Assembly (NCBI GenBank): GCA_964537525.1 | Contig: CAZIAB010000001.1 | Span: 425 to 64,424, forward strand | Length of the DNA stretch: 64,000 nucleotides | Direction: 5' to 3' | Source of the DNA: an uncultured archaeon | GTDB lineage: Archaea > Aenigmatarchaeota > Aenigmatarchaeia > QMZP01 | In this document: in pieces, positions 34,038 through 64,000 of the stretch | Layout of the letters: each line of letters starts with the position of its first letter | Position numbering within the stretch: the stretch's first letter is position 1 | Made by a program: the position numbers and the translations under genes | The notes under the pieces: generated by a model | The model's input: the letters and a program-made list of their open reading frames with translations, nothing else | Told to the model about the DNA's origin: nothing | The model's database searches: none

Positions 34038-34241
34038 TATCATTAGCAGAATGGATTTCAATAGTTTTCTGGTTGCTCCGTTGTGCCCCGAGGGGTATCG
34101 GCTTTTCAAACCCAGACCGCACCCAGAACCAATATAAGCAATGCTTGGTTCGAATTCTGGGAGCGAAAGCTATGGTAAGCCGAGAATAGTTTCTTATATC
34201 ACAATGAACATATTATTAATAGTCGCTGTAATGGAAATGTA

Positions 34242-35701: not shown

Positions 35702-35703
35702 GG

Positions 35704-39301: not shown

Positions 39302-39326
39302 GTCATGTCCTGAGATGCAGAAGATG

Positions 39327-39698: not shown

Positions 39699-39791
39699 TT
39701 ATATTTGTTTATGTTTTATTTAAATCTGAATTCCGGCGTCTGTTTTATAAACCGGTCCGCCAATATATTAATTACTATAGTAGTGGTGATT
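39699..39791. promoter_or_regulatory. AT-rich divergent promoter region between the CheY pair (-) and the KaiC-like gene (+)
   Basis: ttttatttaaat and gttttataaacc TATA-like boxes. A GGTGA ribosome-binding site lies 5 nt before the KaiC ATG. Confidence 0.4.
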
Positions 39792-48300: not shown

Positions 48301-51296
48301 CCGGAGGTCCCATGCTCGAGAGAGCCCGTGATATTTTCCTTGTCAACCTCCAGTGTAACGTTCGGTGTTACGGTGACGTTGACAATGCTCCAGTTGTACA
48401 TCGTCCCTATGTCAATCTCTTCCCAGCTAACGGTGACGTTTATGGTATAGTTTCCCGCAGGCGTCCCGCTCATCACGGTGACGTTGTACGTAACGTTGCA
48501 GGAAGAATCAACTGACACGTTGCCGCAGTCATATGACGTCCCCCCTGTCGCGTTCAGGTAACCGAGATCCATCGAGAGGTTTATCTCTGTGTCGAATGCC
48601 GTAACTGCCCCTATGTTAGTCGTGTTTACAGAGAGGTTGAAGGAATCGCCGGCATACCAGTTCACGATGTCCGTGGTGAAGTTGCCGGGCGTCACGTTGA
48701 TTGAGACATTGGTTCCGGAAACTATCACAGTGAGATTGATTAGATGGAAGTCGCTGGTGGTTGATACGTTCAGCGTCCCGTTGAAGATTCCCGGGGCCTG
48801 GTCCGAGGAGACGTTCACGTTAACCGTGACGTCCTGGTCAGTTCCGGGATTTATGTAAGATATCGGACCGGCAGGATTGAATATGAACTGGAAGTCATCC
48901 AGACCAGTCACGGTGAAGTTGACGTCCTCAATCCTGTAGTTTCCCGTGGAGTTTATGTTTATCGTGCCCATCTGCTTCTCGAACCCGGGACCCACCCTGA
49001 CAGAGAGATTATCGGTGTCAACGAGCATTATTGGGTTCTGGGCTATCGTCACGTTGAAGAGGGTGTAATTGTAGTCAGTGGAAGCGTCTGGATTCGTCCA
49101 GTCTATCGTTATGTTGAATTCATAGGTCTCGTTGGTTGATGCCGCAAGCGCGGTTAAGTTGAAGTGCCTGACACAGCTCAGGTCTATGAGGACGTCGCTG
49201 CAGGAATAGAAGGTCTCGTTGGAGGAGAAGTTCTGGGGAACGGACATGGTGATGTTGGTATCGTATGCGGTGCCGTTGCCTATGTTGCTCATCGTGACCG
49301 TGAGGATAAAGCTTTCGTTGTCGTACCAAGTAACGTTGGTAAGGACCTTGGAAACGGGACTGGGTGTCACCGTTGCGTTGGTAGTGGGAGCTTCGACAGC
49401 GAAGTTGTCGTAATCCGTGCCGTTGTTCCCGTCCCTGATTGCCGTGCAGTTCAGGTAATAGAGGCCGAGCCCGCTGGGCGCGGTGAAGTTTATGCTGTAG
49501 CTGCCGTCACCGTTGTCCGTTATGTTATCCACGTTCGTCTTGTCCCCGGGACTATCGGAATGGTAATATGTACAGTTGACGTCATCTGCCCCTGATATGT
49601 TGGTATCCTGCCTGTAGTTCTTTACCCATAAAGTTGCATTTACTTCCCTGTCAGGTAGGCCGGAGGGGTTCAGAATCGTGAGCGAAGCATAGAACTGGGC
49701 CGTGACGTTGAATGTGTGGTAGGATTCATTGAGCAGGTATCCGTCATGGTTGTATATCCTTGCTGTGTAGTTCCAGTAGCCCTCCGCGGACGTGCTTGGG
49801 AGGGTATAGAGGTTTGACCAGACACCGTCCCCTGCTGCCTGGTCGCCGTGGCCGGAATCGCTGTCATCATAGAGGACAATCGTAACATCATCAGCCGTGG
49901 ATGGCGTTCCCATGTCAAGGGTCGCGTTGGTGTGGTTGGTGAGGTTCCACCCGTCAACCGTGACGTTTACCCAAAGAAGGACGGTCTCGTTCCTGTTGTA
50001 TATGGTGTAGTTTGTTTGAGGGTAGGAAGCTATTATCCATTTCTCTGCAGCGGATTCCGTTATCTCCGGCGCGTACTGGAGGTTGCTCCTGACGTTCGTC
50101 ACCAGGCTCGGTGTCCTTGCGGAATGGCTCGATACGAAGACCGTCTTAGCCCATATGGAAGAGCCGGGGGACATGGTGGCCTCGGGGTTCATCCTGATTC
50201 CAATCCTGCCCAGCGCGGTGCTGTTATCGGCATAAAGGCTGGACGTGCTGGAGTTCTCCAGGATTATCCCGGTTATGTGGCTCGCCGAAAGGTAGGTGGC
50301 CATGATCCATGAGAAAGGGTTGGTCGAGTTCTTGTCCAGGATGTTGTAGGTAGAACTGTACGCGAGGCTCGCGTCGAATGCAGGGGCCCCTGCATCTGCG
50401 CTCCTGTTCACTGAGTACGTGGCATTGTTGGTTATGTTGTACTCGAGCCTGTACCAGGGAATGGTCGGGTAGAAGTAGTATTTCTTCGTTATGAGGGTCT
50501 CGTTCGTAACGTTGTCGATCTGTCCCCAATATACCTCGTCACCCGTCTGGGTCACGGTTATCCTCACATTGCCTACCACTGCATCCATGCTCATGTTGAG
50601 GTCCCAGCTGAAGTTGTGGCTCCCGTTGGTGAACGCCAGGTATTCCCTTGTCCTCTGGCCGCTGCTGCTGTATATGAACTGCTCCTCTTCGTGGGCGATG
50701 TCGTAGACCCTGTAGAGGCCTGAGGTGTTCTCCCCGCGCCTCGTGTCGAAATAGAACAGGTAGTTGGTGTTATTTATGTAGAACTCGTCACCGGAGGGGT
50801 TGAACGTTATGTTGTAGCCGAGCTCCTGGTAGCTCCAGGTTCTTTCCTGTTTCTGGCCGTTCTGCACGGTATCAAAATACAGGTAGAAATTCCTGTCCTT
50901 GCTCTCGTTGTACCATGTCGTCCCGTTCAGTATGAATATTACCTCGCCGTTTGCTGATGCCGCTGCATCATAGTCTCCGTTGGGGTCGAACTGCACAGGG
51001 AGCTCTTGCAGGACAGCGCCTGTGGAGACGTTGTATTCAACCAACCTGAGGGAGAGGTTATCGAAGGTTCCTGAGGCTGACATGTTCTCGAGCAGGTAGG
51101 TGAAGTTCACCTGGTACTCCACGGGCCAGTCGGTCCTGTTCTCGCCCGAGGTGTTTATGTCGAGCCTTATCCTGTAGTGCCAGGACGAGTTCCACCAGAC
51201 GTCATTATAGTTCTCTGACCTGGTAAAGCTGTTGCTGATGATAAACCCTGCCAGCACAATCGCCAGCATCAGTGCCAGGCCAATTCTTTTATTCAT
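45378..51296 (-). CDS. giant surface protein (1972 aa): signal peptide, very long N-x-S/T-saturated beta-rich ectodomain, P/G-rich linker, CARDB-like domain, helical stalk, TM helix, cytoplasmic SHOCT-like tail
   Basis: MNKRIGLALMLAIVLAGFIISNSF signal peptide. About 7 sequons per 100 aa where I counted. The APAPPPPSGEEGGAPEEAGPGGGGG linker is followed by LNITEYDREVGVEVGVIRYVNILVKNTGDSPATNVQLTARS (CARDB-like), a coiled stalk and TM (WWVILIIVFAVVIAVLVIF). The C-terminal ...LLENQYKSGIISKEAFESMRKRSEEKV matches the SHOCT consensus. Confidence 0.75.
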   Translation of the reverse strand: MNKRIGLALMLAIVLAGFIISNSFTRSENYNDVWWNSSWHYRIRLDINTSGENRTDWPVEYQVNFTYLLENMSASGTFDNLSLRLVEYNVSTGAVLQELPVQFDPNGDYDAAASANGEVIFILNGTTWYNESKDRNFYLYFDTVQNGQKQERTWSYQELGYNITFNPSGDEFYINNTNYLFYFDTRRGENTSGLYRVYDIAHEEEQFIYSSSGQRTREYLAFTNGSHNFSWDLNMSMDAVVGNVRITVTQTGDEVYWGQIDNVTNETLITKKYYFYPTIPWYRLEYNITNNATYSVNRSADAGAPAFDASLAYSSTYNILDKNSTNPFSWIMATYLSASHITGIILENSSTSSLYADNSTALGRIGIRMNPEATMSPGSSIWAKTVFVSSHSARTPSLVTNVRSNLQYAPEITESAAEKWIIASYPQTNYTIYNRNETVLLWVNVTVDGWNLTNHTNATLDMGTPSTADDVTIVLYDDSDSGHGDQAAGDGVWSNLYTLPSTSAEGYWNYTARIYNHDGYLLNESYHTFNVTAQFYASLTILNPSGLPDREVNATLWVKNYRQDTNISGADDVNCTYYHSDSPGDKTNVDNITDNGDGSYSINFTAPSGLGLYYLNCTAIRDGNNGTDYDNFAVEAPTTNATVTPSPVSKVLTNVTWYDNESFILTVTMSNIGNGTAYDTNITMSVPQNFSSNETFYSCSDVLIDLSCVRHFNLTALAASTNETYEFNITIDWTNPDASTDYNYTLFNVTIAQNPIMLVDTDNLSVRVGPGFEKQMGTININSTGNYRIEDVNFTVTGLDDFQFIFNPAGPISYINPGTDQDVTVNVNVSSDQAPGIFNGTLNVSTTSDFHLINLTVIVSGTNVSINVTPGNFTTDIVNWYAGDSFNLSVNTTNIGAVTAFDTEINLSMDLGYLNATGGTSYDCGNVSVDSSCNVTYNVTVMSGTPAGNYTINVTVSWEEIDIGTMYNWSIVNVTVTPNVTLEVDKENITGSLEHGTSGSFGNVTILSSGNDVVYNVTLNLTGPGSLSATLSSEGPHDLSTGQSQEILLNATVPFAYPPGTYNGTLNITSNNAGNFSLNVSLTVPVNASWYVNETYCEHSQSPDVGVACMVLVNNTGNVLIDFSVTPAEVNHTNVSSTAFAIDSDDEYELTFYYNVSGIAGQSTWTANYTINATNASAEPDEIDVTILLSPYIKPIVDVEVIPDYAEQLGSVLIYSNVTAQSDRPILMPINVTVTRPDGTNNTVSMTRLYWGGCTGSGPGSTSCWYAYYPSTWGNTTYIGNYTAWVYAEDDLGENETGSDTFYVYTKLSPIMFTLSDEYSNQGYQGSVYYRAKESSGEQNIGNVTVEVVILNPDNETIFNKSYLTESDGFIRNDYAGIYIDFPTYGYPAGNYTVLVNSTYYETQVGFYVNSTQNYTFTMTDHPPSYGIHADMRIYPLWYQNSIMKFVMWFTDSSGMLTDPDSINLNVLNPVNSPYFSTTKASMTRESVGVYTYNYAMPPLAPVGVYNVILNATIGGYYTVAYDYIRVSLGGPYDVGVNILNKEVEPGDILNFELYAENKGDVDNLDVLIEYWVSGQGQTWDYQHFSANIGAGENKTFDASTDPSVSAYIFTSQPPGTYTLNVKVTYNTVNNLYATANGTFDVIGEAPAPPPPSGEEGGAPEEAGPGGGGGQARLNITEYDREVGVEVGVIRYVNILVKNTGDSPATNVQLTARSTEENWFIIEPRNIGTLAAGEEATFTMKILVPFGIASGQHEVMITADSNQSKDSKVFTLFVFTSRKELIDFELVRLKAKLRELKTRTESAKASGYDVSPVEDLIKDIENEIELAENYLQKELYDAALDSVYNAWQLIREAEDLLDDILSRGFLPWWVILIIVFAVVIAVLVIFMRRMTRNLKILLKGRLSEARQVAGAVRPSSDVDVLRTEKAKNQRMLRLLENQYKSGIISKEAFESMRKRSEEKVGEIDRKIRDALK
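46285..46365. repeat. GC-rich low-complexity tract encoding a Pro/Gly/Ala/Glu linker in the 1972-aa protein
   Basis: ggccgccgccccctccgggccctgcctcctctggcgcgcctccctcctctccgctcggcgggggcggggcagg on the plus strand. It corresponds to APAPPPPSGEEGGAPEEAGPGGGGG in the minus-strand product. Confidence 0.6.
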
Positions 51297-53060
51297 TCAT
51301 CCACCAAGAAGCTTCTTCGTTTTCTGGAATGCCTCCCTGCTTATCAAACCGCTCCTGAAGGATTCCTCAAGCTCCTTCAGCATCATCTCCCTCCTGGATA
51401 GCTTCTTTCCTTCTGTCTCCATCCGTTCCGCTTCCTTTTTCCCTGCTTTCTTTGGCTGCTCCCTTGCAGGCTTTGCTCCTTCCTTTACACGTTCTCCTGT
51501 TTCCGCTGTTTCCATGGGATTCTCTGGAGCGGTTTCCTGCTCACCTTCCACTGCAGGCTCTTTTGCCTGTTTTGCATGCTCGCCTGTTTCCGTAGGCTCT
51601 TCTGCAGGAGACGGCGCGGAAATCTTTCCTTCGGGGGCGGGGGCGCCGCTCCTCTCTCCTGCTATCTTCTTCTCAATCTCCTTCAGCCTGTCAAGGTTCA
51701 GCTTCTTTGCCTTCTCGTATTCGTCCTTCTTGAGGGTCCCTGCCTTGAACTGCTCCTCCATCATCTCGAGCACGGAATTTATCTCATCCTTCTGCTCCTG
51801 GTACTTGACGAGCCTGGGCGATTCCTGCATGCCCGTGTCTGCCATGGCTGACATCCTTGTCTCGAGGTTGTCCCTCATCTCCTCTAGTTCTTCCTTTGTC
51901 ACCAGACCTGACGTCTTGGTGTTGACCTCGTCCATACCCTTCATCATCTCCTGTATGAGCTCGCTGGCAGTGTCCTGCTTTGCCTTGTAGAGCATGAAGT
52001 CCTCAAGGCGCTTGTTCAGCTCCATGAATATCCCGTCAATCTTGTCACCCACCCTCTTGATTCTCTTTTCTGTCTCGTCTACCATTATCATCCTGCTCGC
52101 TATGTTCTTGCTGAACTCGACCACCTTCTCGAGGCTTCCCATCTCGCTGAGAACGGATTCGACCAGTCCCACCTTCTTTATTATAACTGACGTGATTTCG
52201 TCCAGCTTCTCTATCTTGGCCTCGTTCTGCTTTATGTCAGAGTCCAGCTTCGTGAGCAGCTTGGTGAACCTCTCTGGCTTGAGCGTGGCCATTGTCTCGT
52301 TCATGTCCTCTGTCTTCATTGCCACGTCGCTGAGCCGCCCGTCTATGCTCGCTGTGCTGGACCTCAGTTCTCCCAGCTCCTCCATTATTCTCCTCACGGT
52401 ATCTGCATTGCCGTCCTTCTCGTCCTTCACGGCGTCCAAGAATGCCTTGAGCTTCTCGAGCTGGACCTGCATCTTCTCCACCCTCGGAAGGACCTCTATA
52501 CCAGATGGCCTTATCTCGTTCACGAGCCTGGTTATGATGTTCTTTATGTCAGCGGTGTCTACCGTTCCTACTGCCGCCATGTCCTTTGAAATCTTCTTTG
52601 CCGGCTCAGGAGGTGCGGCGACCGGTTCAGCGGAGGGAAGCTCGTCCCCGCCAAGACCCTCGCCCGGACCGGGTTGTGACATGGGGATTATGGGTTCATC
52701 ATACTTCTCCTCCTTTGATTCCTTTGCAGGTTCTCCTGTATCCGATGGCTTGGCCTTCCTTCCTTTCTTCGGTTTCTTGGCCTTGCCTTTGGCTTTCTTT
52801 GGTTTTTCTTCCATTTCTCCTTCTTCCGGTACCTCTGCGGGCACTGCAGCAGCGGGAGATTCTTTATCAACCTCCTCCTCGAGCTTCGCTATCTCTGCCT
52901 TGATTTCATCGAGCTTCTTCTGGTTCTTTCCCTTTACCTCATTGTAATGCTCCTCGCTTATGCTTGCCTCGTTGTATGCCTCTTCCAGCGAGGACAGGAG
53001 CATCTCTATGTCCTCCTTCTGTTTCTGCATCTCAACGAGTTTTTCCTTCTTTCCGGGCAT
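51297..53060 (-). CDS. cytoplasmic coiled-coil protein (587 aa) with three SHOCT-like motifs (N-terminal, internal, C-terminal), a lysine-rich low-complexity linker and P/A/E-rich spacers
   Basis: N-terminal ...LEEAYNEASISEEHYNEVKGKNQKKL. Linker KPKKAKGKAKKPKKGRKAKP. Internal ...EEQFKAGTLKKDEYEKAKKLNLDRL. C-terminal REMMLKELEESFRSGLISREAFQKTKKLLGG, which is a near-consensus SHOCT motif. No TM. Its stop abuts the start of the 1972-aa gene, and it lies 12 bp downstream of the giant ATPase-fusion gene. Confidence 0.65.
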   Translation of the reverse strand: MPGKKEKLVEMQKQKEDIEMLLSSLEEAYNEASISEEHYNEVKGKNQKKLDEIKAEIAKLEEEVDKESPAAAVPAEVPEEGEMEEKPKKAKGKAKKPKKGRKAKPSDTGEPAKESKEEKYDEPIIPMSQPGPGEGLGGDELPSAEPVAAPPEPAKKISKDMAAVGTVDTADIKNIITRLVNEIRPSGIEVLPRVEKMQVQLEKLKAFLDAVKDEKDGNADTVRRIMEELGELRSSTASIDGRLSDVAMKTEDMNETMATLKPERFTKLLTKLDSDIKQNEAKIEKLDEITSVIIKKVGLVESVLSEMGSLEKVVEFSKNIASRMIMVDETEKRIKRVGDKIDGIFMELNKRLEDFMLYKAKQDTASELIQEMMKGMDEVNTKTSGLVTKEELEEMRDNLETRMSAMADTGMQESPRLVKYQEQKDEINSVLEMMEEQFKAGTLKKDEYEKAKKLNLDRLKEIEKKIAGERSGAPAPEGKISAPSPAEEPTETGEHAKQAKEPAVEGEQETAPENPMETAETGERVKEGAKPAREQPKKAGKKEAERMETEGKKLSRREMMLKELEESFRSGLISREAFQKTKKLLGG

Positions 53061-53072
53061 GTCTTACACCTC

Positions 53073-56000
53073 CTATTTAATGGTTCCTCCAATCTTCCGG
53101 ATCCTGTTCCTGACAGAATCCATGTATGTCTTGGCCATCGTGAACATCGTTTGCCTGACCTTGTCCTTGGCCAGCTTCAACTCAAACTCAATGTCAGTCA
53201 CGTCAAGTCCCCTTGACTTCAACCTCGCAACCTCCATCTCGATTTCATTGAGCTCGGTGTCGTACTTGACATAGGTGTTTATCTCGACCTCCGAGAGCCT
53301 TCCGACGTCATGGAGGAGCGGCCTGAACTCTATGAAATAGGGCTTTCCGTGGTTGAACTCGGCGTTCTGGAACATTCCAGTCCCTGTCTTGAGCTTGGTG
53401 ATAGTTGAAGCATACTCTGAGCCGTACTTCTGCTTGACCCTCCTGATGTCGCCCGTGTATTTCGTTCGCATCTGTATCTCGTTGGATATGTTGGCCCTGA
53501 TGGCCCCCTTGAAGTCCATGAGTACCTGCGATATCAGCCAGATGCCAATCCCCCACTTTCGGAACTCTCTGCAACCCCTCTCCAGCGCTACATAGCCGCC
53601 CTTCCCGCCATACTTCGGGAGAAGGCGATGGACCTCATCGTAGACAATGAAGAGCTTCAGCTCCCTTGCCTCTGGCCACGGTATCTTGAATATGTCGCTT
53701 ATCGTCCTCCTGACGAATGTGTCAAGCTGGGCCGGGTCCATCTTGTCTATCAGGACTACCGTTATCTCCCCGGGCACCATGTAGTTCCTGACGTCTATGC
53801 TGGTCTCGGGGTCTGTTATCTTGATTAGCCTCCCGGGGAACCTCTTGGCGTCCGTAGGCTTAAGGCCGAAGTTCGGGTAGAGGTCAAGCATCTTCTTGTC
53901 CCTGCAGGGCCTCAGGAACCCTGTCCACTGCGCAGTGGGGTCGAAAACTATGATGGGAATCTTCCTCTTCAGGAGCTCTTCCACGGCAATCATCGCAGAG
54001 ACCGTCTTGCCCGCTCCTGTAGAGCCGGCGGATATGCCGTGGGTCTGGAGCTGCCTCACGTCCATGTACGCATTGACGTCTGTCTCTGCAATCCTTCCTA
54101 TGAGGAATGAATCTTTCCCTGCCTGCGGGAGCTTCTTCATGTCCATCGGGAATATGTATCGCGACTTCTTCTTGTGCTTCTCCTTCCACCATCTCCATGC
54201 ATAGAACCCGCCGTATACGGCAGGAATCATCATGAACATTATCAGGTATGTCACCCATGACATGAAGACGTTCCTCAGGGCGACGAGCAGTCCGGGAAGC
54301 TCGGTGACCTCGAACGCATCCGAGGCGAACGCATATTTCGTCCCGTACCAGTATGAGACGTTTGCCTCTATCACGTACCTGTCATACGGCGTCTCATAAG
54401 GTATCGTGATGTTCCTCCTGAAGGCATACTTCTGCTCGACGCCCACGGTCTCCTTCATGGTCGTGATAATCTCGTCCGTGTTGAGGTTCTTTATCTTGTA
54501 TTCGGCGACTATGTCCTCGACCGTCGCGGTCTCTCCCATGTTGACGAGCGTTACCTCGAACCTGAACTCCTCGCCTGGAGCGACGGTCTTTGTCAGGGCC
54601 TTTATGGCGACGTCGAGCAGGGGTATCGGGACCTGGACCACGTTTATAGTGACCGGCGTCCTGTAGGTCTTGTTGAGCTCCACCAGGTGGGTTATTATGT
54701 CGCCCGTGTATATCCCCGGTGCCGTATTGGGCATGCTGTAGAGCTTTATCTTTATCTGCTCTGTCTGGCCGCCGGCAACCGTTATCAGCGGCCTCTCTAT
54801 GGTTACCATGTCCCATATGGGCGAGCCTGCCTGCACGCTGGTCTCAACTGTTATGGGGGTATTCCTGTTGTTCCTGATTTCCATGGAGTGTATCTCATAA
54901 TCCCCCTGGTCAAGGACGACGTATATCAGCGTTGAATCTATCTCTATCTGTGGCGCCCCTCCTGCCGCCCCTGCTGCTGCCCCGGCACCTGCCCCGGCAC
55001 CGCCGGCCGCGCCTCCGCCCCCTCCTCCTTCTGCCGGCGGAGGCGGCTCAGGGATGATTATCGGGCAGTCAGTGGGGCAGTTGGCGTTGGACTCTCCGTA
55101 ATCATCATGACAGATCCTGTCACCGCAAATGTACTGAGCGAGGACGAATGCCCCTGTCATCGTGGTCGAGTTCGCTGTGACTATTCCGCTCGACGTGTTG
55201 ACGTCCGTGTCGAGCCTCGTCCACCCGGTCGCGTTGGTGCATCCGCTCAAAAGGACCCAGGACGAGCACCTGTATATCCCGAGCGACGTGAGGGAAAAGT
55301 CGTTCGTCTTGCACGTTCCTGCCGTGTAGCACTCTTCAGAGGTGAAGTTCACCGTTCCGTAGGTGTAGTTGAGCTGGCTGGTGTTTATCCAGACACCCTT
55401 GAGCGACTTGGTCGGGAGGCGGACGTTCGGTATTTCACCGAACATGTATGGGTTGTAGACGTCATCCTGGAGGTATGTGTTGTAGAGGGTCGCGGTCTCG
55501 TTGAGGAAGTCCGTCCTTATGTCATAGGCCCTCATGTCAATGGTCTCGTTGTAGTATCCGCCGAGCGTGGCGTTGCTGGCGAAGTTGAACAGGACCGTGG
55601 ACTCTCCGGGTACGAAAAGGGTGAAGTCTACTGATATCGCGGGCTTGTGTATCTTCTCCTCGTCCTTCGTATAGCCGTGGAATATGACCGCAGGGTATAT
55701 CTCGAAGCTCGTGTTGGTCGAGTTGCAGTTACCGGAATAGTCGCACGCGGTGGTGCTCGCGTAATGGACCCCAACCTGGCTTGTGTTGGAGAAATACTGG
55801 CGGAAGGTGTAGATATCACCGGTCATGTAAAGGTAGGTCATGTCGTAGACCTGCGTTGAGATGTCAGGGTATGTTATCGTCAGGGTCGCGTTCTTCACTC
55901 CTCCTGTATCGGTCGCGTTCGTTATTATCTCCACTGTGGAGTTGGACGGCACCTTGGCGGGAACGTAGAGGCTGATGAGTGGGGGATAGGGGTCCTGGTA

Positions 56001-59000
56001 TATTATGGCCTTTGTCTCATAGTCAGAGAGCACGAGGCTGTAGTTCGTGTAAATCACGGTCAGGTTCAGGTCATATCCCCTTGCCAGGGATATGTTCGGG
56101 GCCGTTATGTTCATCCCCCAGAGGTTCGTCGTGTTGGAGAAGGTCAGGTTATTGAACGTCATCTGCTGGGACCAGGTCGCGTTCCTCATCACCAGGGTGA
56201 AGTTGAGGTAGTTGCTGTCGTTCAGGGGAAGGCCTCCATAGGTCACATTGGCATAGACCCAGGTGCTCTGGCCGGGGGTTATGTTTATGGTCGGGCTCGT
56301 CTCGGTGGGGCTCGTTATGTTGAGGGAATAGGGATGGACGCGGAGGTAGACAGTCGTGTATCTGGTCGGCGGGTCGGCGCTGACATTCTGCGTGGTAACG
56401 AGCCCGGAATAGTTGGTGAACGACGCGACGAAGGGCGCGGTGTAGTTTATCCTCAGAGTCTCGTAGTTTCCTATGGGCATGTAGAGCCTGGTGGCGTTTA
56501 TCCCTATGTAAGGGTAGATGTCGCCTGACTTGACGATGTCCAGTATCACGTATGCGTTGCCTATATTCTGTATCTCTATGTACCCGAAGGTGCCCGAAGT
56601 CTGGTGGCTTACCGTGACGTCAATCACTGGCGGGGTCTGCAGCCAGGAAAGGTTGAGAGGGACATTCACCACCAGGGTCACGGTGTCAGTTGAAAGGCCG
56701 GAGGCGTTGGCCTGGAGCGTCCCGAAGTACTGGCCCGTCTCGTACATCATCGGCACCCCCACATCAACGTTTACGTATTCATAGTCTCCCGGCTCTATCA
56801 GGGATATGTTGACGGGGTAGTAGGTCTGGGTGAAGTTCGAGCACACGGTACCGGAAAGGCAGTGGAAGGTTATGTTTGTGGCGTTGGCGTTTCCTATTGA
56901 CTGTATGGTCATGGTGCTGTTGTATGAGTTCCCGCCCATTATCACGTATGAAAGGTTTGCCTGGACTATGTCTATCATGGGATTCGGGAGGACGTTCACT
57001 ATTATGGAGGTCGTGTTGCTTCCTGCAGAGGAGTCAAGGTTGGTCCAGTTGGAGCTTATGTTCACGTAATACTCGCCAGGTAGCGTGCCGTTGACTATGT
57101 ATATCCTTGACTCGCCCGTGCCAGAGCTGTATTTCATTATTGTTCCCACGGAGAAGGTGTTCGGTATTGAGGTCCAGCCTGACGGGATGCTTATGTTCGC
57201 ATTGACGCTGTATGCGCGGGCGTATTCAGGCGACAGGGTGAAGTTGACGTCGAACGAGCTTCCGGTGTATAGCCTTACGTCAGAGATGTTCACGTAAGTA
57301 ACGTTGGGCTCTATGAGCATGGGGGTATTGGCGGCCCCGAGGACAGGGACCTTTGCGGTGCATCCCCAGAGTCCTGCGGTGTCGTTCGCGCAGACGCTGA
57401 TATTGTGGTAGCCTCCCGATGTTCCGTTATAAGTGACGTTGTAGACCGGCTTCAGCGCGCCGCTCATGTACTGCTTCAGGATGGTCCCGTTCGGGAGGGT
57501 CACGTTTATCCATGCCGTGCTCACGTCGAAATTGTCTGTTATGCGAGCGGATATGTTCACGACCTCGAACCCTACCTCGAATACCATAGGGGTTATGTTG
57601 ACCTGGGTTATGTTCGGGGGTATGTCCGTGACATTAAGATAGAAGTCTGTCCCGTATTCGTTCGGTGTTGCGGTGGTGTTCCTTGTCAGCAGGTTGACAT
57701 AATAGAGTCCCTGCTGCTGTCCGGAAAGAATCTGGTAGTAGACCGAGACGTTCCTCCTGGTCTGCTTGTCAAGGTCGAAGTAGCTCGGTTCCGTATAGAC
57801 AAGGTCTGTCCCATTGCCGAGCTTGTAGACCCTGAAGGCGGTCTTCCTGTTGCCGGTGTTGTAGACGCTTATGTTGCCTATGAACCCTGATGTATTGAGT
57901 AGGGCAAGGACCTTTGTGAAGTTGGTCGGGGTCCTCCACCACGAGGTGTTGAGAGGAACGGTTATGTTTATCATGGAATCGTCGGTCCCTGCGTTGCTCG
58001 TGGTTGCCCTCAGGTACGTCCAGTAGTCATCGGGGTCCTGGCCCGCGGGTATGATTGCGGTGAGCTGGACAGTGAAATTGTATCCTGCTGCGAGGAAGCC
58101 CTGGGTCGATGGGATTATCGTTATCTCGCACTCCGGGCATTCTGTCGCGAAGTTGCCTGCGGCGTCAACGAGAGCGAGCTCTATGTCCTCCACCGCGTCG
58201 TTGCCCGAGGAAACGACCGTCACGCTCCCTATATAGGTCGTCTTGTCGTGCGGGGTGGTGTTGTGCAGGTAGCTGGGCGTTATCTCCACCACCGGGTTGG
58301 AAGAGACGTCAAACATGGTGTAGTTGCTGCTCATGTTCGTGGTCAGTTCCGGGTTGGTCCACGAGGCATTGACCCAGAGCTTTATAAGCATCGGGGGCGT
58401 TCCCTCAGGGACCCTGACATGGAGGTCCCACGTGCAGTTATCCCATGGGGCCATGTCGCCGCACGACTGGAAGGTGTCGTTGATTTCTATGGTGTCGTTG
58501 GGCTCATCGTAAGCAATCAGCTCGACGTCATACATGTTCGCCGGGCCCTCGCTGGTGAAGTTGACCACGAGGTCAACCTCGAAGTCATTGGACTGCGTTA
58601 TGCCATTGACCAGGACCTCATAGGTCGTGTAGACCCTGCCCCACGACTTGCCCCAGACGGAAAGGTTGCCCGCGTAGCTGTAGTTCTTGTTGTATTCCCA
58701 GCCGAGGTCCCTGGCCCAGACCGTGACGGCGTGCTCACCGTCTATCAGCGGGACATAGGTGAGCCTGTATAAATCTCCGCTGGGGGTCATGTTGGTCATG
58801 GTGTGGTTGTGGATGCTGCCGTTCGGGAGCTCTATCTGCGCCCAGACCAGGTCGACCCCTATATCGTCTGTCACGTTCGCCGTTATGTTGGTGTAGTTCA
58901 GGTTCGCCTCGAGGCTCACGTTCGGGATGGCCGATACGTTGGTTATGACGGGGGGTGTCACGTCGCGGACGTAGAGGCTTCCCTCTGCCTGGTCCGTGTG

Positions 59001-62000
59001 GACGATTATCTCCATCTCAGGGGCATCCGTTATGTTGCACTTGAAGGTTATGTTACCCTTCTGCACGGGCTCGAATGTGTAGTTCGTATAGCCCGTGCTG
59101 TTGGTGGTGAAGTTCTCTATGAACTGGTAAGGCTGGCTGTACCAGTGATACCAGAGATCGACGTCATAGTTCGGGATGCCGTTCATGGATTCCGAGTCGA
59201 TGACCCTGCATATGGTAGTGAAATTTATTGGGTAGGGGAGCTGCGTCCCGTTCGTTGGGTATATCCACTGGACTATTGAGAGGCCGGAAACTATTATGGT
59301 CACGTAATCCTCGCCGGATGCGTAATAGGTCTTGCTGGCGTTGGCCTTGATTGTCCGGTTTCCGGTCGCCTGGTTGCTCAGGTTTAGCGGCCTGGAGATG
59401 CCATCGCCAAGGTAGGAGCTTTCATTCCACCAGAGAGGGTTGGTTGTCGCGGTCATGTCATTTCCCATCTCGTCTGTTACGTCAACCGTAAGCGTCACGG
59501 TCTCGTTCTTTGCGTATGCGGTGTTGTTCTCAGGGGATGTTATGTTGAGGATAAGGACGCCCCTCACCTCGAGGTATGTTTCGTAGGTGTCGGAATCCTC
59601 TAGCCCGCTCTTGGTTGCATTGATGTATACGGTGTAGTTGCCGGGGTTGATGGTGTCAGTGACGTTATAGGTGATGTTGCAGTTGCCCACGGAATTGGTT
59701 ATGCAGAAGTCTATGAAGCCGGTAGAGTTCCAGAACGTGACGTTCGCCCCTGCCGCATTGCCCACGTTGGCGTCCTTAACGTGCACGTCTATCTCTGTCT
59801 CGTGCGGGCTATAGCTGTCGTTCCTGTATATCCATGCCTCCGAGAGGTCGATGTCGTCTATCTTGAGCTGTCTCCTCACCCTTATTATGGACGTCCTGTA
59901 GCTCATGTTCGTCGTGGTGTTGTAGTAGAGAGTGCTGTCGTTGCCTATGGTGCAGGTTATGTTGTAATAGTCAGGACTCTCGAGCCCGGTGTTCCAGTTC
60001 CACGTTGCCTCGCCAGTCCCGTCGCTGTCGTCGCTGTCCTGGTATGTGCCGTTCTTGTAGAAGGACACGTTGTATCCCGTTATTACCTGGTTGGTGTTGT
60101 TGTCCCGGACGTAGCACCTCAAGGTCACCCACGTCCCTGCATCGACCTCTGTCCCGTTCGCTGGCAGGATGTTATAGACCCAGCTCCATCCATAGACAAG
60201 GACGCTGGTCTGGTTGTTGCCCAGGTCGAAATACTGCCTCGTGGCGTTCATCCTCAGTATCTCGGAGCCGAGGACGTAGTTATAAGGAACGAGCCACGTC
60301 GAGTTATACCACCCCTGGCTCCCGTCAGTGGTGTCGTTGATAAGAATCCAGCTCTCGTTGAACCAGTAGGCATGGGAATCGCTTATCTGGTTGCCGCATT
60401 CGTCGCCTACCGTGAGGTTCAGCGTTTCCGTGACGTTCCTGTTGAGGACCTGGCCTGAGGAGGGGCTGGTGGTGTTCACGTAAAGCTGGCCGTAAACGGT
60501 GAGGGGCCTCGCCGACGCGTTCAGCGGCTGGTAGCATGAGTCTGAAGTCCCTCCAATCCAGTACTGGACCCCGACATCGGAACCGCAGTCAGGAGGATAG
60601 TCCACAGAGCACCTCCCGCTGTCCGCGGTGGTGCAGTCCATCTCCACGGTGTAGTTGGCGTGGTCCTCTGTGACCCAGACCTTGCCGTCCGTCCCGTTGG
60701 GGTATTCTCCCTCGTCGTAATCGTAAATCACGAATTCGAGGAAGGCAGTCTGGGAGCCGAGCCTCCTTACGGTAGAGTTGGAACTGCCCAGGCTGAAGCT
60801 CACGTTGTCGGCCTCTATGGTGAAGTTGTAGGGCCCTATCTCGTCGCTGAAGTTGAACTGGTCAACCGTCATGAACCTGTACTGGTTGACGCCCATGTCA
60901 GCGCACGTGAACTCCTGGTAGAAGTATACGTATTTCCCGATGAGGTTGTTCTTGTAGGTCTCGTTTATAAGAGTCCAGTTGGTCCAGTCCCCGGCAGTCT
61001 GGTTCCATATCCTCTTCCACAGGGTCACGTTGTTGTAGTTGCCGTCATTGTCGGTCACCCTCACGGCAAAGGTGAACGTCCTTCCCCAGCCGTCAAGCGT
61101 CGGGCTGACGCTCGGGTTGGAGAGCACAGGGGCAAGCCCGAGGAAGAACTTGTTGATATAGAAGGACTCGTTGTTCCCGTAGAAGGTCTTGGAAACCACC
61201 ATGCTCAGGTTATACCAGCCTGTCCCCCTCGCTGTGTCGAGCCATGTAAAGTTATACCAGCCTCCGCCCTCGGACCATGAGCCGTACGAGCTTGTGTTGT
61301 GTATCGGGTTCGTGTTGCTCCTGTTGTAGTAGTTGGGGAATATCATCATGCTGTATATGACATTCGCGTCCGCAACCATCTCGCAGTCATCGTTTATGGT
61401 GCCGTTCATTATGACCGGCTGGCCCCAGAGGAATCCCTCGCCGTTCGGGTAATGTATTACCGGAACCAGGTTGCTCTTTATCGTAAGGTTGTATTCGCTC
61501 GAGTTGGCTGACTTGAAGCAGGTATCGTTCTGCAACCCTCCGGAGCCACCCTTCCATATCTGGTTTCCTGTCGTGTAGTTGCATTCCTGTATTGGCGCGT
61601 CCGTGGGGAAGAAGTAGCTTATGTGGCCGCTTCCGTTGGAGACCGTGGTTATTCCCGGGTCCCATGAGGTCGGGTCTGATGCGTTGGTGGTTACCCAGAA
61701 GCTCGCGTTCACGTTCGAGCCCGCGGTCATGCCCCTGTCAGTGTCCCATATGCGGAGGGAAAGCTCCTGCTCGTCGCTGCCGTTCCTCCAGACGTATTCG
61801 TCGTCTCCCATGTAATACTGGACCTGGACGTCGTCCTTCTCCACGGTGTAGTTGACGGGTGAGGTCTGGTTCTCCAGGGCAGGTATCCTCGTGTCCTGCG
61901 CGTGGAAGTAGTATTCCCATGTATCTATGTTGTTGCAGTCGGTTTCCTGCCACGAAAGTATTGCGTTCTCCGATATCGGACCGTAGAGGGTGGTAGTGTT

Positions 62001-64000
62001 GACCGGCGAGCCCCAGAATGCCTCCCCGTATTTCCTCACGAAGAGCTCGAGCGTCACGTTGTCGAGGTCCTCGTCGGTAACGTTGACGCTGAAGTAGAAC
62101 CTCTCGCCCCACCCACCCGGATTCGTGAGGGGAAGCGTATCATTGAGGACAGGGGTAGTGCTCACAAAGAAGTGGTCTGCCTGATAATCAGTTCCGTTGT
62201 AGTAGAAGTTGCTGAATGATGTGGTTGTCGTTGAATACCACCTTGCCAGCTTACCTGCCGTCCCCCAAGTGCAGTTGTAGTAACCGGTCGTCTGGTTAGT
62301 TACTGGTGTGCAGGAGAAATTCGCGCTGCTCTCGTGGGTAAGCGTGAAGGACGCGTTCACGTCCTCCCTGAACATGTCGCAGTCGTCGTCAACGAACACC
62401 TCCATGGTGACGTCCTCCACCCCCCTCTCGAAATCGTCACCTATGCTGGGCTCTGTTATGTCATTGTACAGGTTGCCCCAGATGCTCATGTTGTATTCTG
62501 GGGTGACGTTGTTGTAGTAGCACGAGTCGGTTATCTGCGCGTACCACGTCTGGTTCCCTGGCCTGTAGACAGGGACGTCGCAGCCGGGGTCGAAGTATAT
62601 GTTTGAATATCCGGAGGTGTTAGTGGTGTTGTCTGTCCCGTAGTCGTATTCAGAGCCGTTATAGGTGACGTAGAGCGTCACGTTGTAGCCGCTCCCTATC
62701 AGCTCGTTCTTTATCAGGTCCGTTATGTTGACTGTTACGAGTGCCGTCTGGGTCCCTGTCCTGTTGGCGACCGAGTGAGAGAAGACGCGCTCTATCTTCG
62801 CAATGTCTGTGGTTATGTTGGGACCGGAGACGTTGTTCGTGTAGTTCGTGTTGGTGCCGTCCATTATCTTGAAGTGGAAGAGGTTGTCGTCACCTATGTG
62901 GCTGCAGTCGAAGTTCCCAACGCTCAGGTTGCACCAGTCCCTTCCACCTATTATCGTGGTGTTGTTCATGAGTACGTAGGACGACCCTCCGTTGGTGGAT
63001 ACGTAGAGCTCGCAGGTCACGTTGTCCTGCTGGGTGTCCCAGATATAGGTAGAGTATTCGAAAACGTCACCCCATCCGCTCTGGTTGGGAGTCAGGCCGG
63101 TCTGGTTTATCGTGGGCGGCGTATTCAGCAGGAATATCCAATCGTCCCAGACAGTGGAGTTGCTGTTGTACCAGGGCTTGCTGGAGTTGAGCCTTATGTC
63201 CCAGTACCCGCCCATGTGGAACGAGGTGTCCCACGTGTAGTTATACCAGCCGCTTCCCTCCTCCTCAGGGGAGTAGGACTCCCATTCATCGAGGGGCGAA
63301 CTGAAGGAGATGTCGGTTGCTGCGGAATCCTGCATGTCGCTCATGCCGCAGTCCGTGGTGACGTTGAACCTGGAGATCACGGAGTCACCCACGGCAATGA
63401 TGTCATCCTCATCCGGAAGTTCCAGGTTGTTCTTAAGCTGGCCGATTATGCTCATGTTGTAGCTGCTTCCGAAGGCAGGGGTGTAATAGCATTCGTCCTC
63501 GGACGTTATGTTGGCCCTGAACCTGTGCGTGCCCGCCGTGTAGAAGGGAGTGCACAAGGGGTCAAAATAGATACCCAGGTCACCGCTGGAATTTGTCTGG
63601 TTGAGCGTTCCTGAATCCCAGTCATTCAAATCAGTTCCGTTGAGGTTGACGAATATTGTTCCGTTCACCCCTCCGCTGGTTATGATGTCGCTGCCGTTGT
63701 CAAGGTCTATGAAATAGAATGCGAGGTAGCTTGTCTCAGAACCCTCCCTGTTGACCATGGAGTTTATGCTAAAGCTCCTTGGTATCGCGGTAAGCCTGTC
63801 CTTGAGCATGTCAAAGCTTCTCGTGTCCGTCGTGGACGTGTCGCCCCACATGTCAGTCGCGTTTATCTTGAAGTAGTTCGTTCCCACGTCATCGCACTCA
63901 AAGCTCATCGTCAGGTTGTACTCCTGCTCTCCGCTGGGTGTCAGCGTGAGGTTCGTAACGAGGGTCCAGTTATCTGTTGAGTTGTAGGACTTCCATAAAT
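53073..64000 (-). CDS. giant surface protein (more than 3640 aa, N-terminus beyond the window edge) fused by a single TM helix to a C-terminal cytoplasmic HerA/FtsK-superfamily (DUF87-like) P-loop ATPase domain
   Basis: The reading frame stays open to position 64000 (hand translation upstream of the track start gives ...LWKSYNSTDNWTLVTNLTLTPSGEQEYNLTMSFE...). Thousands of residues are N-x-S/T-rich. Near the C-terminus: a CPTDCP segment, then a PEPPPPAEGGGGGGAAGGAGAGAGAAAGAAGG linker, two CARDB-like domains and TM (WVTYLIMFMMIPAVYGGFYAWRWW). The cytoplasmic part has Walker A (GISAGSTGAGKTVSAMI...IPIIVFDPTAQWTGF), Walker B (LFIVYDEVHRLLPK) and a HerA-type arginine-finger region (REFRKWGIGIWLISQVLMDFKGAIRANISNEIQMRT). 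It ends in a coiled-coil with the SHOCT-like ...LKSRGLDVTDIEFELKLAKDKV. Confidence 0.8.
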   Translation of the reverse strand, partial: LWKSYNSTDNWTLVTNLTLTPSGEQEYNLTMSFECDDVGTNYFKINATDMWGDTSTTDTRSFDMLKDRLTAIPRSFSINSMVNREGSETSYLAFYFIDLDNGSDIITSGGVNGTIFVNLNGTDLNDWDSGTLNQTNSSGDLGIYFDPLCTPFYTAGTHRFRANITSEDECYYTPAFGSSYNMSIIGQLKNNLELPDEDDIIAVGDSVISRFNVTTDCGMSDMQDSAATDISFSSPLDEWESYSPEEEGSGWYNYTWDTSFHMGGYWDIRLNSSKPWYNSNSTVWDDWIFLLNTPPTINQTGLTPNQSGWGDVFEYSTYIWDTQQDNVTCELYVSTNGGSSYVLMNNTTIIGGRDWCNLSVGNFDCSHIGDDNLFHFKIMDGTNTNYTNNVSGPNITTDIAKIERVFSHSVANRTGTQTALVTVNITDLIKNELIGSGYNVTLYVTYNGSEYDYGTDNTTNTSGYSNIYFDPGCDVPVYRPGNQTWYAQITDSCYYNNVTPEYNMSIWGNLYNDITEPSIGDDFERGVEDVTMEVFVDDDCDMFREDVNASFTLTHESSANFSCTPVTNQTTGYYNCTWGTAGKLARWYSTTTTSFSNFYYNGTDYQADHFFVSTTPVLNDTLPLTNPGGWGERFYFSVNVTDEDLDNVTLELFVRKYGEAFWGSPVNTTTLYGPISENAILSWQETDCNNIDTWEYYFHAQDTRIPALENQTSPVNYTVEKDDVQVQYYMGDDEYVWRNGSDEQELSLRIWDTDRGMTAGSNVNASFWVTTNASDPTSWDPGITTVSNGSGHISYFFPTDAPIQECNYTTGNQIWKGGSGGLQNDTCFKSANSSEYNLTIKSNLVPVIHYPNGEGFLWGQPVIMNGTINDDCEMVADANVIYSMMIFPNYYNRSNTNPIHNTSSYGSWSEGGGWYNFTWLDTARGTGWYNLSMVVSKTFYGNNESFYINKFFLGLAPVLSNPSVSPTLDGWGRTFTFAVRVTDNDGNYNNVTLWKRIWNQTAGDWTNWTLINETYKNNLIGKYVYFYQEFTCADMGVNQYRFMTVDQFNFSDEIGPYNFTIEADNVSFSLGSSNSTVRRLGSQTAFLEFVIYDYDEGEYPNGTDGKVWVTEDHANYTVEMDCTTADSGRCSVDYPPDCGSDVGVQYWIGGTSDSCYQPLNASARPLTVYGQLYVNTTSPSSGQVLNRNVTETLNLTVGDECGNQISDSHAYWFNESWILINDTTDGSQGWYNSTWLVPYNYVLGSEILRMNATRQYFDLGNNQTSVLVYGWSWVYNILPANGTEVDAGTWVTLRCYVRDNNTNQVITGYNVSFYKNGTYQDSDDSDGTGEATWNWNTGLESPDYYNITCTIGNDSTLYYNTTTNMSYRTSIIRVRRQLKIDDIDLSEAWIYRNDSYSPHETEIDVHVKDANVGNAAGANVTFWNSTGFIDFCITNSVGNCNITYNVTDTINPGNYTVYINATKSGLEDSDTYETYLEVRGVLILNITSPENNTAYAKNETVTLTVDVTDEMGNDMTATTNPLWWNESSYLGDGISRPLNLSNQATGNRTIKANASKTYYASGEDYVTIIVSGLSIVQWIYPTNGTQLPYPINFTTICRVIDSESMNGIPNYDVDLWYHWYSQPYQFIENFTTNSTGYTNYTFEPVQKGNITFKCNITDAPEMEIIVHTDQAEGSLYVRDVTPPVITNVSAIPNVSLEANLNYTNITANVTDDIGVDLVWAQIELPNGSIHNHTMTNMTPSGDLYRLTYVPLIDGEHAVTVWARDLGWEYNKNYSYAGNLSVWGKSWGRVYTTYEVLVNGITQSNDFEVDLVVNFTSEGPANMYDVELIAYDEPNDTIEINDTFQSCGDMAPWDNCTWDLHVRVPEGTPPMLIKLWVNASWTNPELTTNMSSNYTMFDVSSNPVVEITPSYLHNTTPHDKTTYIGSVTVVSSGNDAVEDIELALVDAAGNFATECPECEITIIPSTQGFLAAGYNFTVQLTAIIPAGQDPDDYWTYLRATTSNAGTDDSMINITVPLNTSWWRTPTNFTKVLALLNTSGFIGNISVYNTGNRKTAFRVYKLGNGTDLVYTEPSYFDLDKQTRRNVSVYYQILSGQQQGLYYVNLLTRNTTATPNEYGTDFYLNVTDIPPNITQVNITPMVFEVGFEVVNISARITDNFDVSTAWINVTLPNGTILKQYMSGALKPVYNVTYNGTSGGYHNISVCANDTAGLWGCTAKVPVLGAANTPMLIEPNVTYVNISDVRLYTGSSFDVNFTLSPEYARAYSVNANISIPSGWTSIPNTFSVGTIMKYSSGTGESRIYIVNGTLPGEYYVNISSNWTNLDSSAGSNTTSIIVNVLPNPMIDIVQANLSYVIMGGNSYNSTMTIQSIGNANATNITFHCLSGTVCSNFTQTYYPVNISLIEPGDYEYVNVDVGVPMMYETGQYFGTLQANASGLSTDTVTLVVNVPLNLSWLQTPPVIDVTVSHQTSGTFGYIEIQNIGNAYVILDIVKSGDIYPYIGINATRLYMPIGNYETLRINYTAPFVASFTNYSGLVTTQNVSADPPTRYTTVYLRVHPYSLNITSPTETSPTINITPGQSTWVYANVTYGGLPLNDSNYLNFTLVMRNATWSQQMTFNNLTFSNTTNLWGMNITAPNISLARGYDLNLTVIYTNYSLVLSDYETKAIIYQDPYPPLISLYVPAKVPSNSTVEIITNATDTGGVKNATLTITYPDISTQVYDMTYLYMTGDIYTFRQYFSNTSQVGVHYASTTACDYSGNCNSTNTSFEIYPAVIFHGYTKDEEKIHKPAISVDFTLFVPGESTVLFNFASNATLGGYYNETIDMRAYDIRTDFLNETATLYNTYLQDDVYNPYMFGEIPNVRLPTKSLKGVWINTSQLNYTYGTVNFTSEECYTAGTCKTNDFSLTSLGIYRCSSWVLLSGCTNATGWTRLDTDVNTSSGIVTANSTTMTGAFVLAQYICGDRICHDDYGESNANCPTDCPIIIPEPPPPAEGGGGGGAAGGAGAGAGAAAGAAGGAPQIEIDSTLIYVVLDQGDYEIHSMEIRNNRNTPITVETSVQAGSPIWDMVTIERPLITVAGGQTEQIKIKLYSMPNTAPGIYTGDIITHLVELNKTYRTPVTINVVQVPIPLLDVAIKALTKTVAPGEEFRFEVTLVNMGETATVEDIVAEYKIKNLNTDEIITTMKETVGVEQKYAFRRNITIPYETPYDRYVIEANVSYWYGTKYAFASDAFEVTELPGLLVALRNVFMSWVTYLIMFMMIPAVYGGFYAWRWWKEKHKKKSRYIFPMDMKKLPQAGKDSFLIGRIAETDVNAYMDVRQLQTHGISAGSTGAGKTVSAMIAVEELLKRKIPIIVFDPTAQWTGFLRPCRDKKMLDLYPNFGLKPTDAKRFPGRLIKITDPETSIDVRNYMVPGEITVVLIDKMDPAQLDTFVRRTISDIFKIPWPEARELKLFIVYDEVHRLLPKYGGKGGYVALERGCREFRKWGIGIWLISQVLMDFKGAIRANISNEIQMRTKYTGDIRRVKQKYGSEYASTITKLKTGTGMFQNAEFNHGKPYFIEFRPLLHDVGRLSEVEINTYVKYDTELNEIEMEVARLKSRGLDVTDIEFELKLAKDKVRQTMFTMAKTYMDSVRNRIRKIGGTIK
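54955..55050. repeat. GC-rich low-complexity tract encoding the Pro/Gly/Ala linker of the giant ATPase-fusion protein
   Basis: cctgccgcccctgctgctgccccggcacctgccccggcaccgccggccgcgcctccgccccctcctcctt corresponds to PEPPPPAEGGGGGGAAGGAGAGAGAAAGAAGGAP in the minus-strand product. Confidence 0.6.

Follow-up and report, generated by a model that had tools for sequence, protein, structure and literature searches.

The closest described relatives of the giant gene analysed here, which occupies one end of a 64,000-nucleotide (nt) stretch of contig CAZIAB010000001.1 (the window), encode the SPEARE proteins of nanohaloarchaea. These have the same topology, reach 8,553 amino acids (aa) and carry ectodomains with one or more laminin-G domains alongside further domains for adhesion; a SPEARE protein was detected by proteomics, and similar intracellular sequences were reported from Woesearchaeota, Aenigmarchaeota, Micrarchaeota and Altiarchaeales (Hamm 2019, PMC6642349). 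Versions of 8,880 and 9,409 aa were described with a signal peptide, about 75 immunoglobulin (Ig)-like domains, a transmembrane (TM) helix, a cytosolic 'VirB4/TraG-like ATPase' and a coiled coil; the same study rejected protease and endonuclease annotations, proposed a secretion 'straw', and identified the gene downstream in nanohaloarchaea as a VirB4-type ATPase (Reva 2023, PMC10266531). Known members are NAR1_1133 of Candidatus (Ca.) Nanohaloarchaeum antarcticus (5,998 aa), those of Ca. Nanopetramus SG9 (up to 8,553 aa) and SVXNc_0300 of Ca. Nanohalococcus (9,409 aa) (PMC6642349, PMC10266531).

DPANN archaea rely on physical contact with a host, and SPEARE-type proteins are leading candidates for the passage of material between the two. 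They have so far been discussed almost only for nanohaloarchaea. The first-pass annotation of the window knew of no report of a giant surface adhesin-like protein whose cytoplasmic tail is a HerA/FtsK-type ATPase, but both papers describe this arrangement. Its suggestions that the protein might serve in extrusion, signalling or translocation likewise overlap with published speculation. Two papers on archaeal 'dark matter' (PMC4158269, PMC6393860) do not describe the family. The predicted archaeal secretion system of Makarova (arCOG01314/arCOG02884; PMC5898192) is unrelated, since its components are MoxR and vWA proteins and include no HerA-type ATPase. All coordinates below are window positions, and aa numbers refer to the visible frame.

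Relation of the giant protein to SPEARE proteins

The minus-strand frame runs from position 63998 to a TAG stop at 53073-53075, giving 3,641 sense codons with no internal stop on translation, which bears out the continuous open frame of at least 10.9 kb called in the first-pass annotation. As the frame runs past the window edge, the N-terminus of the protein is missing; in an orthologue with 85% identity overall (locus L005) the frame stays open for 203 codons further upstream, to the end of that contig. When the window protein was compared by BLASTP with the last 752 residues of the Ca. Nanohaloarchaeum (Nha.) antarcticus SPEARE, taken from Fig. S18 of the supplementary information of Hamm 2019, the two aligned over 763 positions with 31% identity and an E value of 2e-105. 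The alignment is collinear through the last ectodomain segment, the Gly linker, both Ig-like domains, the TM helix, the ATPase and the tail, and identity within the ATPase is about 45% by eye. The window protein is therefore placed in the SPEARE family, and we regard membership with this architecture as very nearly certain.

Like the SPEAREs, the window protein is giant and mostly extracellular, with a single TM helix near the C-terminus, a retained cytoplasmic P-loop ATPase and then a helical or coiled-coil tail; its last ~760 residues are collinear with theirs, and giant and short (~650-730 aa) paralogues exist in both. Unlike them, it belongs to an Aenigmatarchaeota-like phylum-level lineage, has a non-halophilic amino-acid composition, and carries an ectodomain that is unrelated in sequence and extremely rich in N-glycosylation sequons.

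With one genome scanned per species, at least 572 species genomes encode a relative. Almost all are DPANN, bearing Aenigmat-, Micr-, Nano-, Woese-, Parv-, Undin- and Nanohal-archaeota labels. Of the relatives with a name the closest are Aenigmatarchaeota, and nearly every Aenigmatarchaeota-like genome has a member of the family. In most of the best 80 loci the frame meets no stop anywhere in the 10-kb upstream flank, which corresponds to more than 3,900 aa, and short forms of ~730 aa (L070, L077) are paralogues in genomes that also hold a giant copy. Clustering at 50% identity gave 364 clusters at E <=1e-30. Among the representatives of the best 150 of these, 111 exceed 1,000 aa, 64 exceed 2,000 aa and 9 exceed 5,000 aa, with a maximum of 7,665 aa. 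The ATPase lies at or near the C-terminus in most representatives, some having an extra C-terminal extension. Several complete giant relatives (for example P0181, P0185, P0191 and P0215) have signal-peptide-like starts. Others (P0220, P0242, P0288, P0306) start with a conserved motif, 'MV.KKYIKR.G..YGPYYYESYR..GKV', and no signal-peptide-like sequence, which hints at a different N-terminal anchoring or topology for these proteins.

In principle the fusion could stem from a frameshift, or from a chimeric join between a gene for a surface protein and an independent small gene for a DUF87 protein. The closest database proteins do look like separate 485-620-aa 'DUF87' proteins, the closest matches include many 400-800-aa 'DUF87 domain-containing' proteins, and at L001 and L004 the gene is called as two pieces, of at least 4,020 and at least 3,798 aa followed by DUF87 proteins of 500 and 598 aa respectively. 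However, the two pieces are parted solely by runs of N (scaffold gaps, at 9849-9859 in L001 and ~9903-9912 in L004) in or just after the Gly/Ala linker, and in short matches of the kind found at L002 and L003 the gene begins at a contig end. Scaffold gaps in this linker thus split the genes, and databases and public annotations therefore under-report the fusion. Ectodomain, TM helix and ATPase are read in one unbroken frame in the window and likewise in dozens of independent genome assemblies, and the cluster representatives include giants as long as 7,665 aa whose ATPase is C-terminal. The ratio of non-synonymous to synonymous substitution rates (dN/dS) against the L005 orthologue is 0.03 for the ATPase and 0.08-0.20 over the ectodomain; because it is far below 1 throughout, the whole open reading frame (ORF) evolves as coding sequence. 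The chance of an assembly or annotation artefact is negligible and we exclude it: the feature is a real gene, with purifying selection computed over it.

The ectodomain diverges faster than the cytoplasmic module, with 61-64% identity to L005 at aa 501-1000 against 97% in the module. The segment at aa 501-1000 (60999-62498) also stands out from the remainder of the protein, which is 81-97% identical, and has a raised dS of 1.4. This points to an exchange of repeats or to recombination, and less to positive selection alone.

Architecture of the protein and its HerA-like ATPase

Thr, Asn, Ser and Tyr are abundant in the first ~3,230 residues, and Lys is scarce. Sequons of the form N-X(not P)-S/T number 194 in aa 1-3230, compared with 56 ± 6.5 in 500 composition-preserving shuffles, and only one occurs in the last 411 aa. 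An AglB/STT3 oligosaccharyltransferase gene is encoded in the window (10562-12904), and N-glycosylation is therefore plausible in this organism. Self-BLAST detected diverged super-repeats, with E values down to 7e-25: four of ~325 aa in aa 1-1300, two of ~310 aa in aa 1122-1616 and two of ~440 aa in aa 1675-2575. The single Pfam match in this region, to NPCBM_assoc at aa 2362-2431, is below threshold, and the first 700 aa have only 8 database homologues, all partial. The membrane-proximal Cys segment (Table 1) is also kept in the Ca. Nha. antarcticus SPEARE and in short ~725-aa members of the family (P0041, P0053, P0056).

To model the membrane-proximal part we used AlphaFold2 on the last 640 aa with 46 homologues, as a single chain. 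The mean predicted local distance difference test score (pLDDT) was 88.5. In order, the model contains a disordered Gly/Ala linker, two beta-sandwiches (pLDDT ~90), a long helix, a RecA-like alpha/beta domain and a three-helix tail. The long helix spans a hydrophobic segment and the basic extension that follows it. Only one 19-residue window in the whole protein exceeds 1.6 on the Kyte-Doolittle scale, at aa ~3237-3265, and it is followed by RWWKEKHKKKSR. Topology was assigned from hydropathy, the side carrying basic residues, the sequon asymmetry and the model. Together these indicate that the protein is most likely a type-I membrane protein, with a predicted N-glycosylated, repeat-built ectodomain of at least 3,200 aa, a Pro/Gly linker, two Ig-like domains, one TM helix, a cytoplasmic HerA-like ATPase and a helical tail.

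This layout agrees in most respects with the first-pass annotation, which had proposed more than 3,000 residues of N-x-S/T-rich, beta-rich extracellular polypeptide, a Pro/Gly linker (seen in the translation) and a single C-terminal TM helix with the ATPase inside. Additional TM helices or an outward-facing ATPase would have contradicted that layout; a single helix was found, with its positive residues on the ATPase side and 194 sequons against one across the membrane. The 'two CARDB-like domains' held up only in part. Two beta-sandwich domains are modelled at the expected place, but Pfam gives no CARDB match on either, and we therefore describe them as generic Ig-like sandwiches.

The Walker A motif, the IIVFDPTAQW motif, the Walker B motif and the RKWG-type arginine region that had been read from the sequence are each present (Table 1), and all four are invariant or nearly so across 47 family members. 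In a Pfam scan of the full protein, aa 3300-3406 matched DUF87 at 30.7 bits (cutoff 23.2) and HerA_C at 26.8 bits (cutoff 22); with the 640-aa piece the scores rose to 35.2 bits for DUF87 (PF01935) and 33.0 bits for HerA_C (PF05872). Among the 47 aligned members DUF87 matched all 47 and HerA_C 42, followed by T4SS-DNA_transf (25/47), DEAD (23/47), ResIII (19/47), FtsK_SpoIIIE (PF01580; 18/47, weakly), AAA_10 (11/47) and TrwB_AAD_bind (10/47). The ResIII and DEAD matches span only the shared P-loop. Those to ResIII account for the origin of the published 'restriction endonuclease' label.

A PDB sequence search placed HerA proteins and the HerA-like helicase YjgR above noise, all remaining matches having E >0.2. 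In fold comparison the ATPase scored 24.7 with Sulfolobus HerA (4d2i), 23.4 with the DndH/DptH C-domain, 22.0 with Deinococcus HerA, 21.7 with VirB4 (4ag5), 17.9 with TrwB, 16.6 with FtsK and 16.5 with EccC. HerA/DUF87 outscored the VirB4 and VirD4 families in every comparison made. Pfam, the PDB search and fold comparison thus concur with the HerA/VirB4/FtsK clade assignment made at first pass, and they show that the module forms its own branch of the FtsK-HerA superfamily, with HerA as the nearest relative. Orthology to the HerA repair helicase is ruled out: NCBIfam HerA equivalogs scored only 14.8-23.6 bits, far under their cutoffs of 800-970, and the protein lacks a HAS-barrel. NCBIfam also gave weak CedD and TraD matches at the Walker A region. 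Pfam and NCBIfam found no protease or nuclease family in the giant protein.

HerA itself (Sulfolobus 4d2i, Deinococcus 7f6d, Thermococcus 9x1l) and the HerA-like defence ATPases (DndH/DptH, Nezha, HerA-DUF) share with the window protein above-cutoff DUF87/HerA_C matches and the same Walker A, Walker B and arginine motifs. Unlike soluble HerA, the window ATPase is membrane-anchored, with a TM helix and ectodomain in place of the HAS-barrel, and unlike HerA and the defence ATPases it has no NurA, Mre11, Rad50 or Sir2 partner; NurA gave no match among the window ORFs scanned. As a P-loop ATPase tethered to the membrane, with a predicted ring, it resembles VirB4, VirD4/TrwB, FtsK/SpoIIIE, EccC/EssC and CedB/CedD of archaeal Ced DNA import, which are ring ATPases coupled to DNA or protein transport. 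VirB4, TrwB, FtsK, EccC and the Ced proteins, however, have N-terminal or N-terminal multi-pass anchors and no giant ectodomain, whereas the anchor here is a single helix continuing from an extracellular chain of more than 3,000 aa. The window protein also has no VirB4 N-domain, FtsK gamma domain or EccC tandem ATPases. The VirB4 N-domain (PF03135) matched neither the window protein nor any of the 47 members, and no second related ATPase was found in the window's large ORFs.

The three-helix tail aligns with the SPEARE C-terminus and corresponds to the 'coiled-coil domain at the tip' of the nanohaloarchaeal giants (PMC10266531).

Operon partners and candidate mechanism

Twelve nt past the stop of the giant gene, behind GAGGTG, begins a gene for a 587-aa protein that AlphaFold2 models as all-helical (predicted template-modelling score, pTM, 0.22) and that has no Pfam and no PDB match. 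A homologue lies directly downstream of the giant gene in 68 of the 74 loci with room for one. The next gene encodes a 1,972-aa protein with a signal peptide, a 109-sequon ectodomain, a P/G linker, an NPCBM_assoc/CARDB domain (Pfam NPCBM_assoc, 65.3 bits), one TM helix and a cytoplasmic SHOCT-like tail. It abuts the 587-aa gene, as expected of the downstream surface protein that the first-pass annotation had placed in the minus-strand operon, and of the 52 loci with enough sequence to show it, 28 have a full-length homologue (~1,970 aa) downstream in the same orientation. That annotation had called the 587-aa product a SHOCT protein, but it has no Pfam SHOCT match; the SHOCT match, below threshold at 19.1 bits (cutoff 27), sits in the tail of the 1,972-aa protein. 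Near SPEARE-type operons a ParA/MinD-type ATPase gene occurs in 29 of 84 loci and a 246-aa ORF in 11 of 84.

We found no published description of this set of a coiled-coil and a second surface protein. The two genes as kept partners may therefore be new here, and so may the strength of the HerA assignment, the finding that giants are common among the closest relatives, and the annotation artefact that hides them. The window adds that proteins in which a TM-helix-plus-motor module is joined to a very large ectodomain are the usual form in the family, that the motor is closest to HerA, and that the module is accompanied by a conserved coiled-coil partner and, in many loci, by a second large surface protein, which makes these partners concrete targets for study.

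Of the mechanisms considered, we favour the following. The variable ectodomain would attach to the surface of the symbiont's host cell. The membrane-proximal module would form a hexameric ring in which six TM helices are bundled and twelve Ig-like domains make a collar below six long, glycosylated arms. Where the two cells touch, this ring would spend ATP in moving DNA or a polypeptide across, or at, the membrane of the symbiont, and its partners would be the co-transcribed cytoplasmic coiled-coil protein and, in many genomes, the second ~1,970-aa surface protein. A hexameric ring is predicted because, to our knowledge, every structurally characterised HerA/VirB4/FtsK relative (HerA, VirB4, TrwB, FtsK, EccC) forms one; host binding and polymer movement are proposed from what is published on SPEARE proteins and from the way DPANN archaea live. 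Ring formation, host contact, translocation and its substrate are thus predictions, whereas the integrity of the gene, the indicators of topology, the family assignment, the ATPase fold and its conserved motifs, purifying selection and the conserved operon are computed results. Our overall confidence, which blends the nearly certain SPEARE-family membership with the adhesion-plus-translocase mechanism, is roughly 0.7; the mechanism on its own is tentative, at somewhat short of even odds.

Several observations weigh against this reading. The models are of single chains, and one TM helix per subunit would be a minimal basis for a channel. DNA and protein substrates are not told apart, since HerA and DndH are DNA motors and VirB4 is nearly as close. 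The HAS-barrel is absent N-terminal to the ATPase, where the AlphaFold2 model has the TM helix instead. Among the window ORFs scanned there is no nuclease, VirB4 N-terminal domain or other component of a type IV secretion system (T4SS). Laminin-G, protease-like and toxin-like regions, as reported for nanohaloarchaeal SPEAREs, were not detected by Pfam in the visible 3,641 aa, though the missing N-terminus could still hold a laminin-G domain. Finally, the downstream gene in nanohaloarchaea encodes a VirB4-type ATPase and that in the window a coiled-coil protein, so the two systems may not work identically.

The published straw proposal makes the giant protein itself the channel of a T4SS-like device, through which the VirB4/TraG-like domain pumps effectors into the host (Reva 2023, PMC10266531). 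The T4SS-DNA_transf, AAA_10 and TrwB_AAD_bind matches in 25, 11 and 10 of the 47 members are in keeping with it. We nevertheless consider it rather improbable: the HerA/DUF87 families are consistently the better match, the large ORFs of the window contain no PF03135, no second VirB4-like ATPase and no other T4SS component, and the ectodomain consists of beta-sandwich-type repeats with no predicted conduit. Import of host DNA through a pore in the ectodomain, followed by cutting with a type III restriction-like domain, was the earlier suggestion (Hamm 2019, PMC6642349), and one to which we give a low probability. The ResIII and DEAD matches, in 19 and 23 of 47 members, would fit it, as would the fact that the relatives HerA, FtsK and TrwB are DNA translocases. 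DPANN archaea generally lack nucleotide synthesis, which also speaks for the idea. Yet those matches are confined to the P-loop, the fold is HerA-like and not that of a superfamily 2 (SF2) helicase, and no nuclease domain is present, a conclusion also reached by Reva 2023 (PMC10266531). The 'restriction endonuclease' half of the idea is therefore rejected, and its import half is kept within the adhesion-plus-translocase mechanism.

The protein might instead be an adhesin or envelope fibre whose ATPase does housekeeping at the membrane, such as FtsK-like chromosome clearance at division or the positioning and turnover of the fibre, with no part in intercellular transport. The near-universal presence of the family in Aenigmatarchaeota-like genomes, among housekeeping genes, speaks for such a role, together with the ParA/MinD-type ATPase genes in 29 of 84 loci and the existence of short ~725-aa forms with almost no ectodomain. 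Across hundreds of species, however, a fast-diverging ectodomain is covalently tied to the motor, which argues that the functions outside and inside the cell are linked; there is also no FtsK gamma or DNA-recognition domain, and PF01580 does not match the window protein. We think a housekeeping role improbable.

A more far-reaching reading, which we consider unlikely but less so than these alternatives, is that the giant protein, the ~590-aa coiled-coil protein and the second surface protein of ~1,970 aa, in many cases near a ParA/MinD-type ATPase, make up a separate kind of machinery for transport between cells, encoded on the chromosome and present across DPANN archaea. This machinery could have only the motor fold in common with T4SS, Ced and FtsK, and could take DNA, nucleotides or proteins from hosts or inject them. 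If so, it would be the missing molecular basis of DPANN-host exchange.

Feature positions and surrounding genes

Table 1. Positions of features in the giant gene, its operon and the signalling island of the window
Feature	Position	Strand	Remarks
Giant extracellular region	55179..63998	-	aa 1-2940; N-X-S/T-rich, beta-rich; from open frame, sequons and self-BLAST repeats
Membrane-proximal Cys segment	55065..55178	-	C2958, C2963, C2974, C2978; ...YICGDRICHDDYGESNANCPTDC
Pro-rich, then Gly/Ala-rich flexible linker	54957..55064	-	translation PIIIPEPPPPAEGGGGGGAAGGAGAGAGAAAGAAGG; pLDDT <50 in model
Ig-like beta-sandwich domain 1	54636..54947	-	aa 3018-3121
Ig-like beta-sandwich domain 2	54306..54617	-	aa 3128-3231; AlphaFold2 model; sub-threshold Pfam Nis1 match
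TM helix and cytoplasmic basic extension (GLLVALRNVFMSWVTYLIMFMMIPAVYGGFYAWRWWKEKHKKK)	54165..54293	-	sole hydropathy peak; helix 235-277 in model
RecA-like P-loop ATPase, FtsK-HerA superfamily	53325..54110	-	closest to HerA/DUF87
Walker A GSTGAGKT	54003-54026	-	ATPase motif
IIVFDPTAQW	53925-53954	-	ATPase motif (FDPTAQW)
Walker B FIVYDEVH	53628-53651	-	ATPase motif
REFRKWG	53550-53570	-	ATPase motif
C-terminal three-helix tail	53094..53291	-	aa 3570-3635; model helices 569-594, 600-614, 618-634, pLDDT ~90
587-aa cytoplasmic all-helical protein	51297..53060	-	three helical hairpins, central coiled coil aa 191-386, disordered acidic/basic linkers (AlphaFold2)
1,972-aa second surface protein	45378..51296	-	ATG directly after TGA of 587-aa gene
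205-aa ORF	44715..45332	-	45 nt downstream of 1,972-aa gene
246-aa ORF	32332-33072		signalling island
ParA/MinD-type ATPase	33171-34037		signalling island
Weak KaiC-like 182-aa ORF	34242-34790	+	signalling island
Double-PAS protein	34787-35701		signalling island
Seven-transmembrane (7TM)-Cache-HAMP histidine kinase	35704-38955		signalling island
Two receiver-only response regulators	38924-39301, 39327-39698		signalling island
KaiC-family ATPase	39705-40646		signalling island

Apart from the window, the 205-aa ORF beyond the second surface protein is shared by L005 alone, the closest relative. The ORF gives no match in Pfam, and its membership in the system is doubtful. It had been labelled KaiC-like, which has no support at Pfam threshold. 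Its L005 orthologue is 29% identical (E 2e-15) to the weak KaiC/DUF7504-like 182-aa ORF, and the 205-aa and 182-aa ORFs are therefore distant paralogues.

A signalling island lies at 32332-40646. Beyond it, a 1,352-aa protein with Laminin_G_3 and NPCBM_assoc domains (40660-44718, plus strand) is encoded by a gene that converges on the operon; laminin-G, an adhesion domain described as part of the nanohaloarchaeal SPEAREs, is thus found in the window in a separate gene. On the minus strand at 24285-32119 are adjacent ORFs of 1,773 and 838 aa with only sub-threshold Pfam matches of coiled-coil type (DUF7310, Baculo_PEP_C). The larger has no homologue in 84 related loci and the smaller a single weak, partial match (L010). 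A 1,058-aa ORF at 14257-17433 (plus strand) has no Pfam match at E <=1e-5.

The window also carries housekeeping genes, among them those for a RuBisCO large-subunit homologue (RuBisCO III; 2021-3424), diphthamide synthase (5275-6219), HMG-CoA reductase (7556-8827) and SecDF, in addition to AglB/STT3. These genes, together with the presence of the family in nearly all genomes of the lineage, indicate that the window is part of an archaeal chromosome and not of a plasmid or other mobile element.

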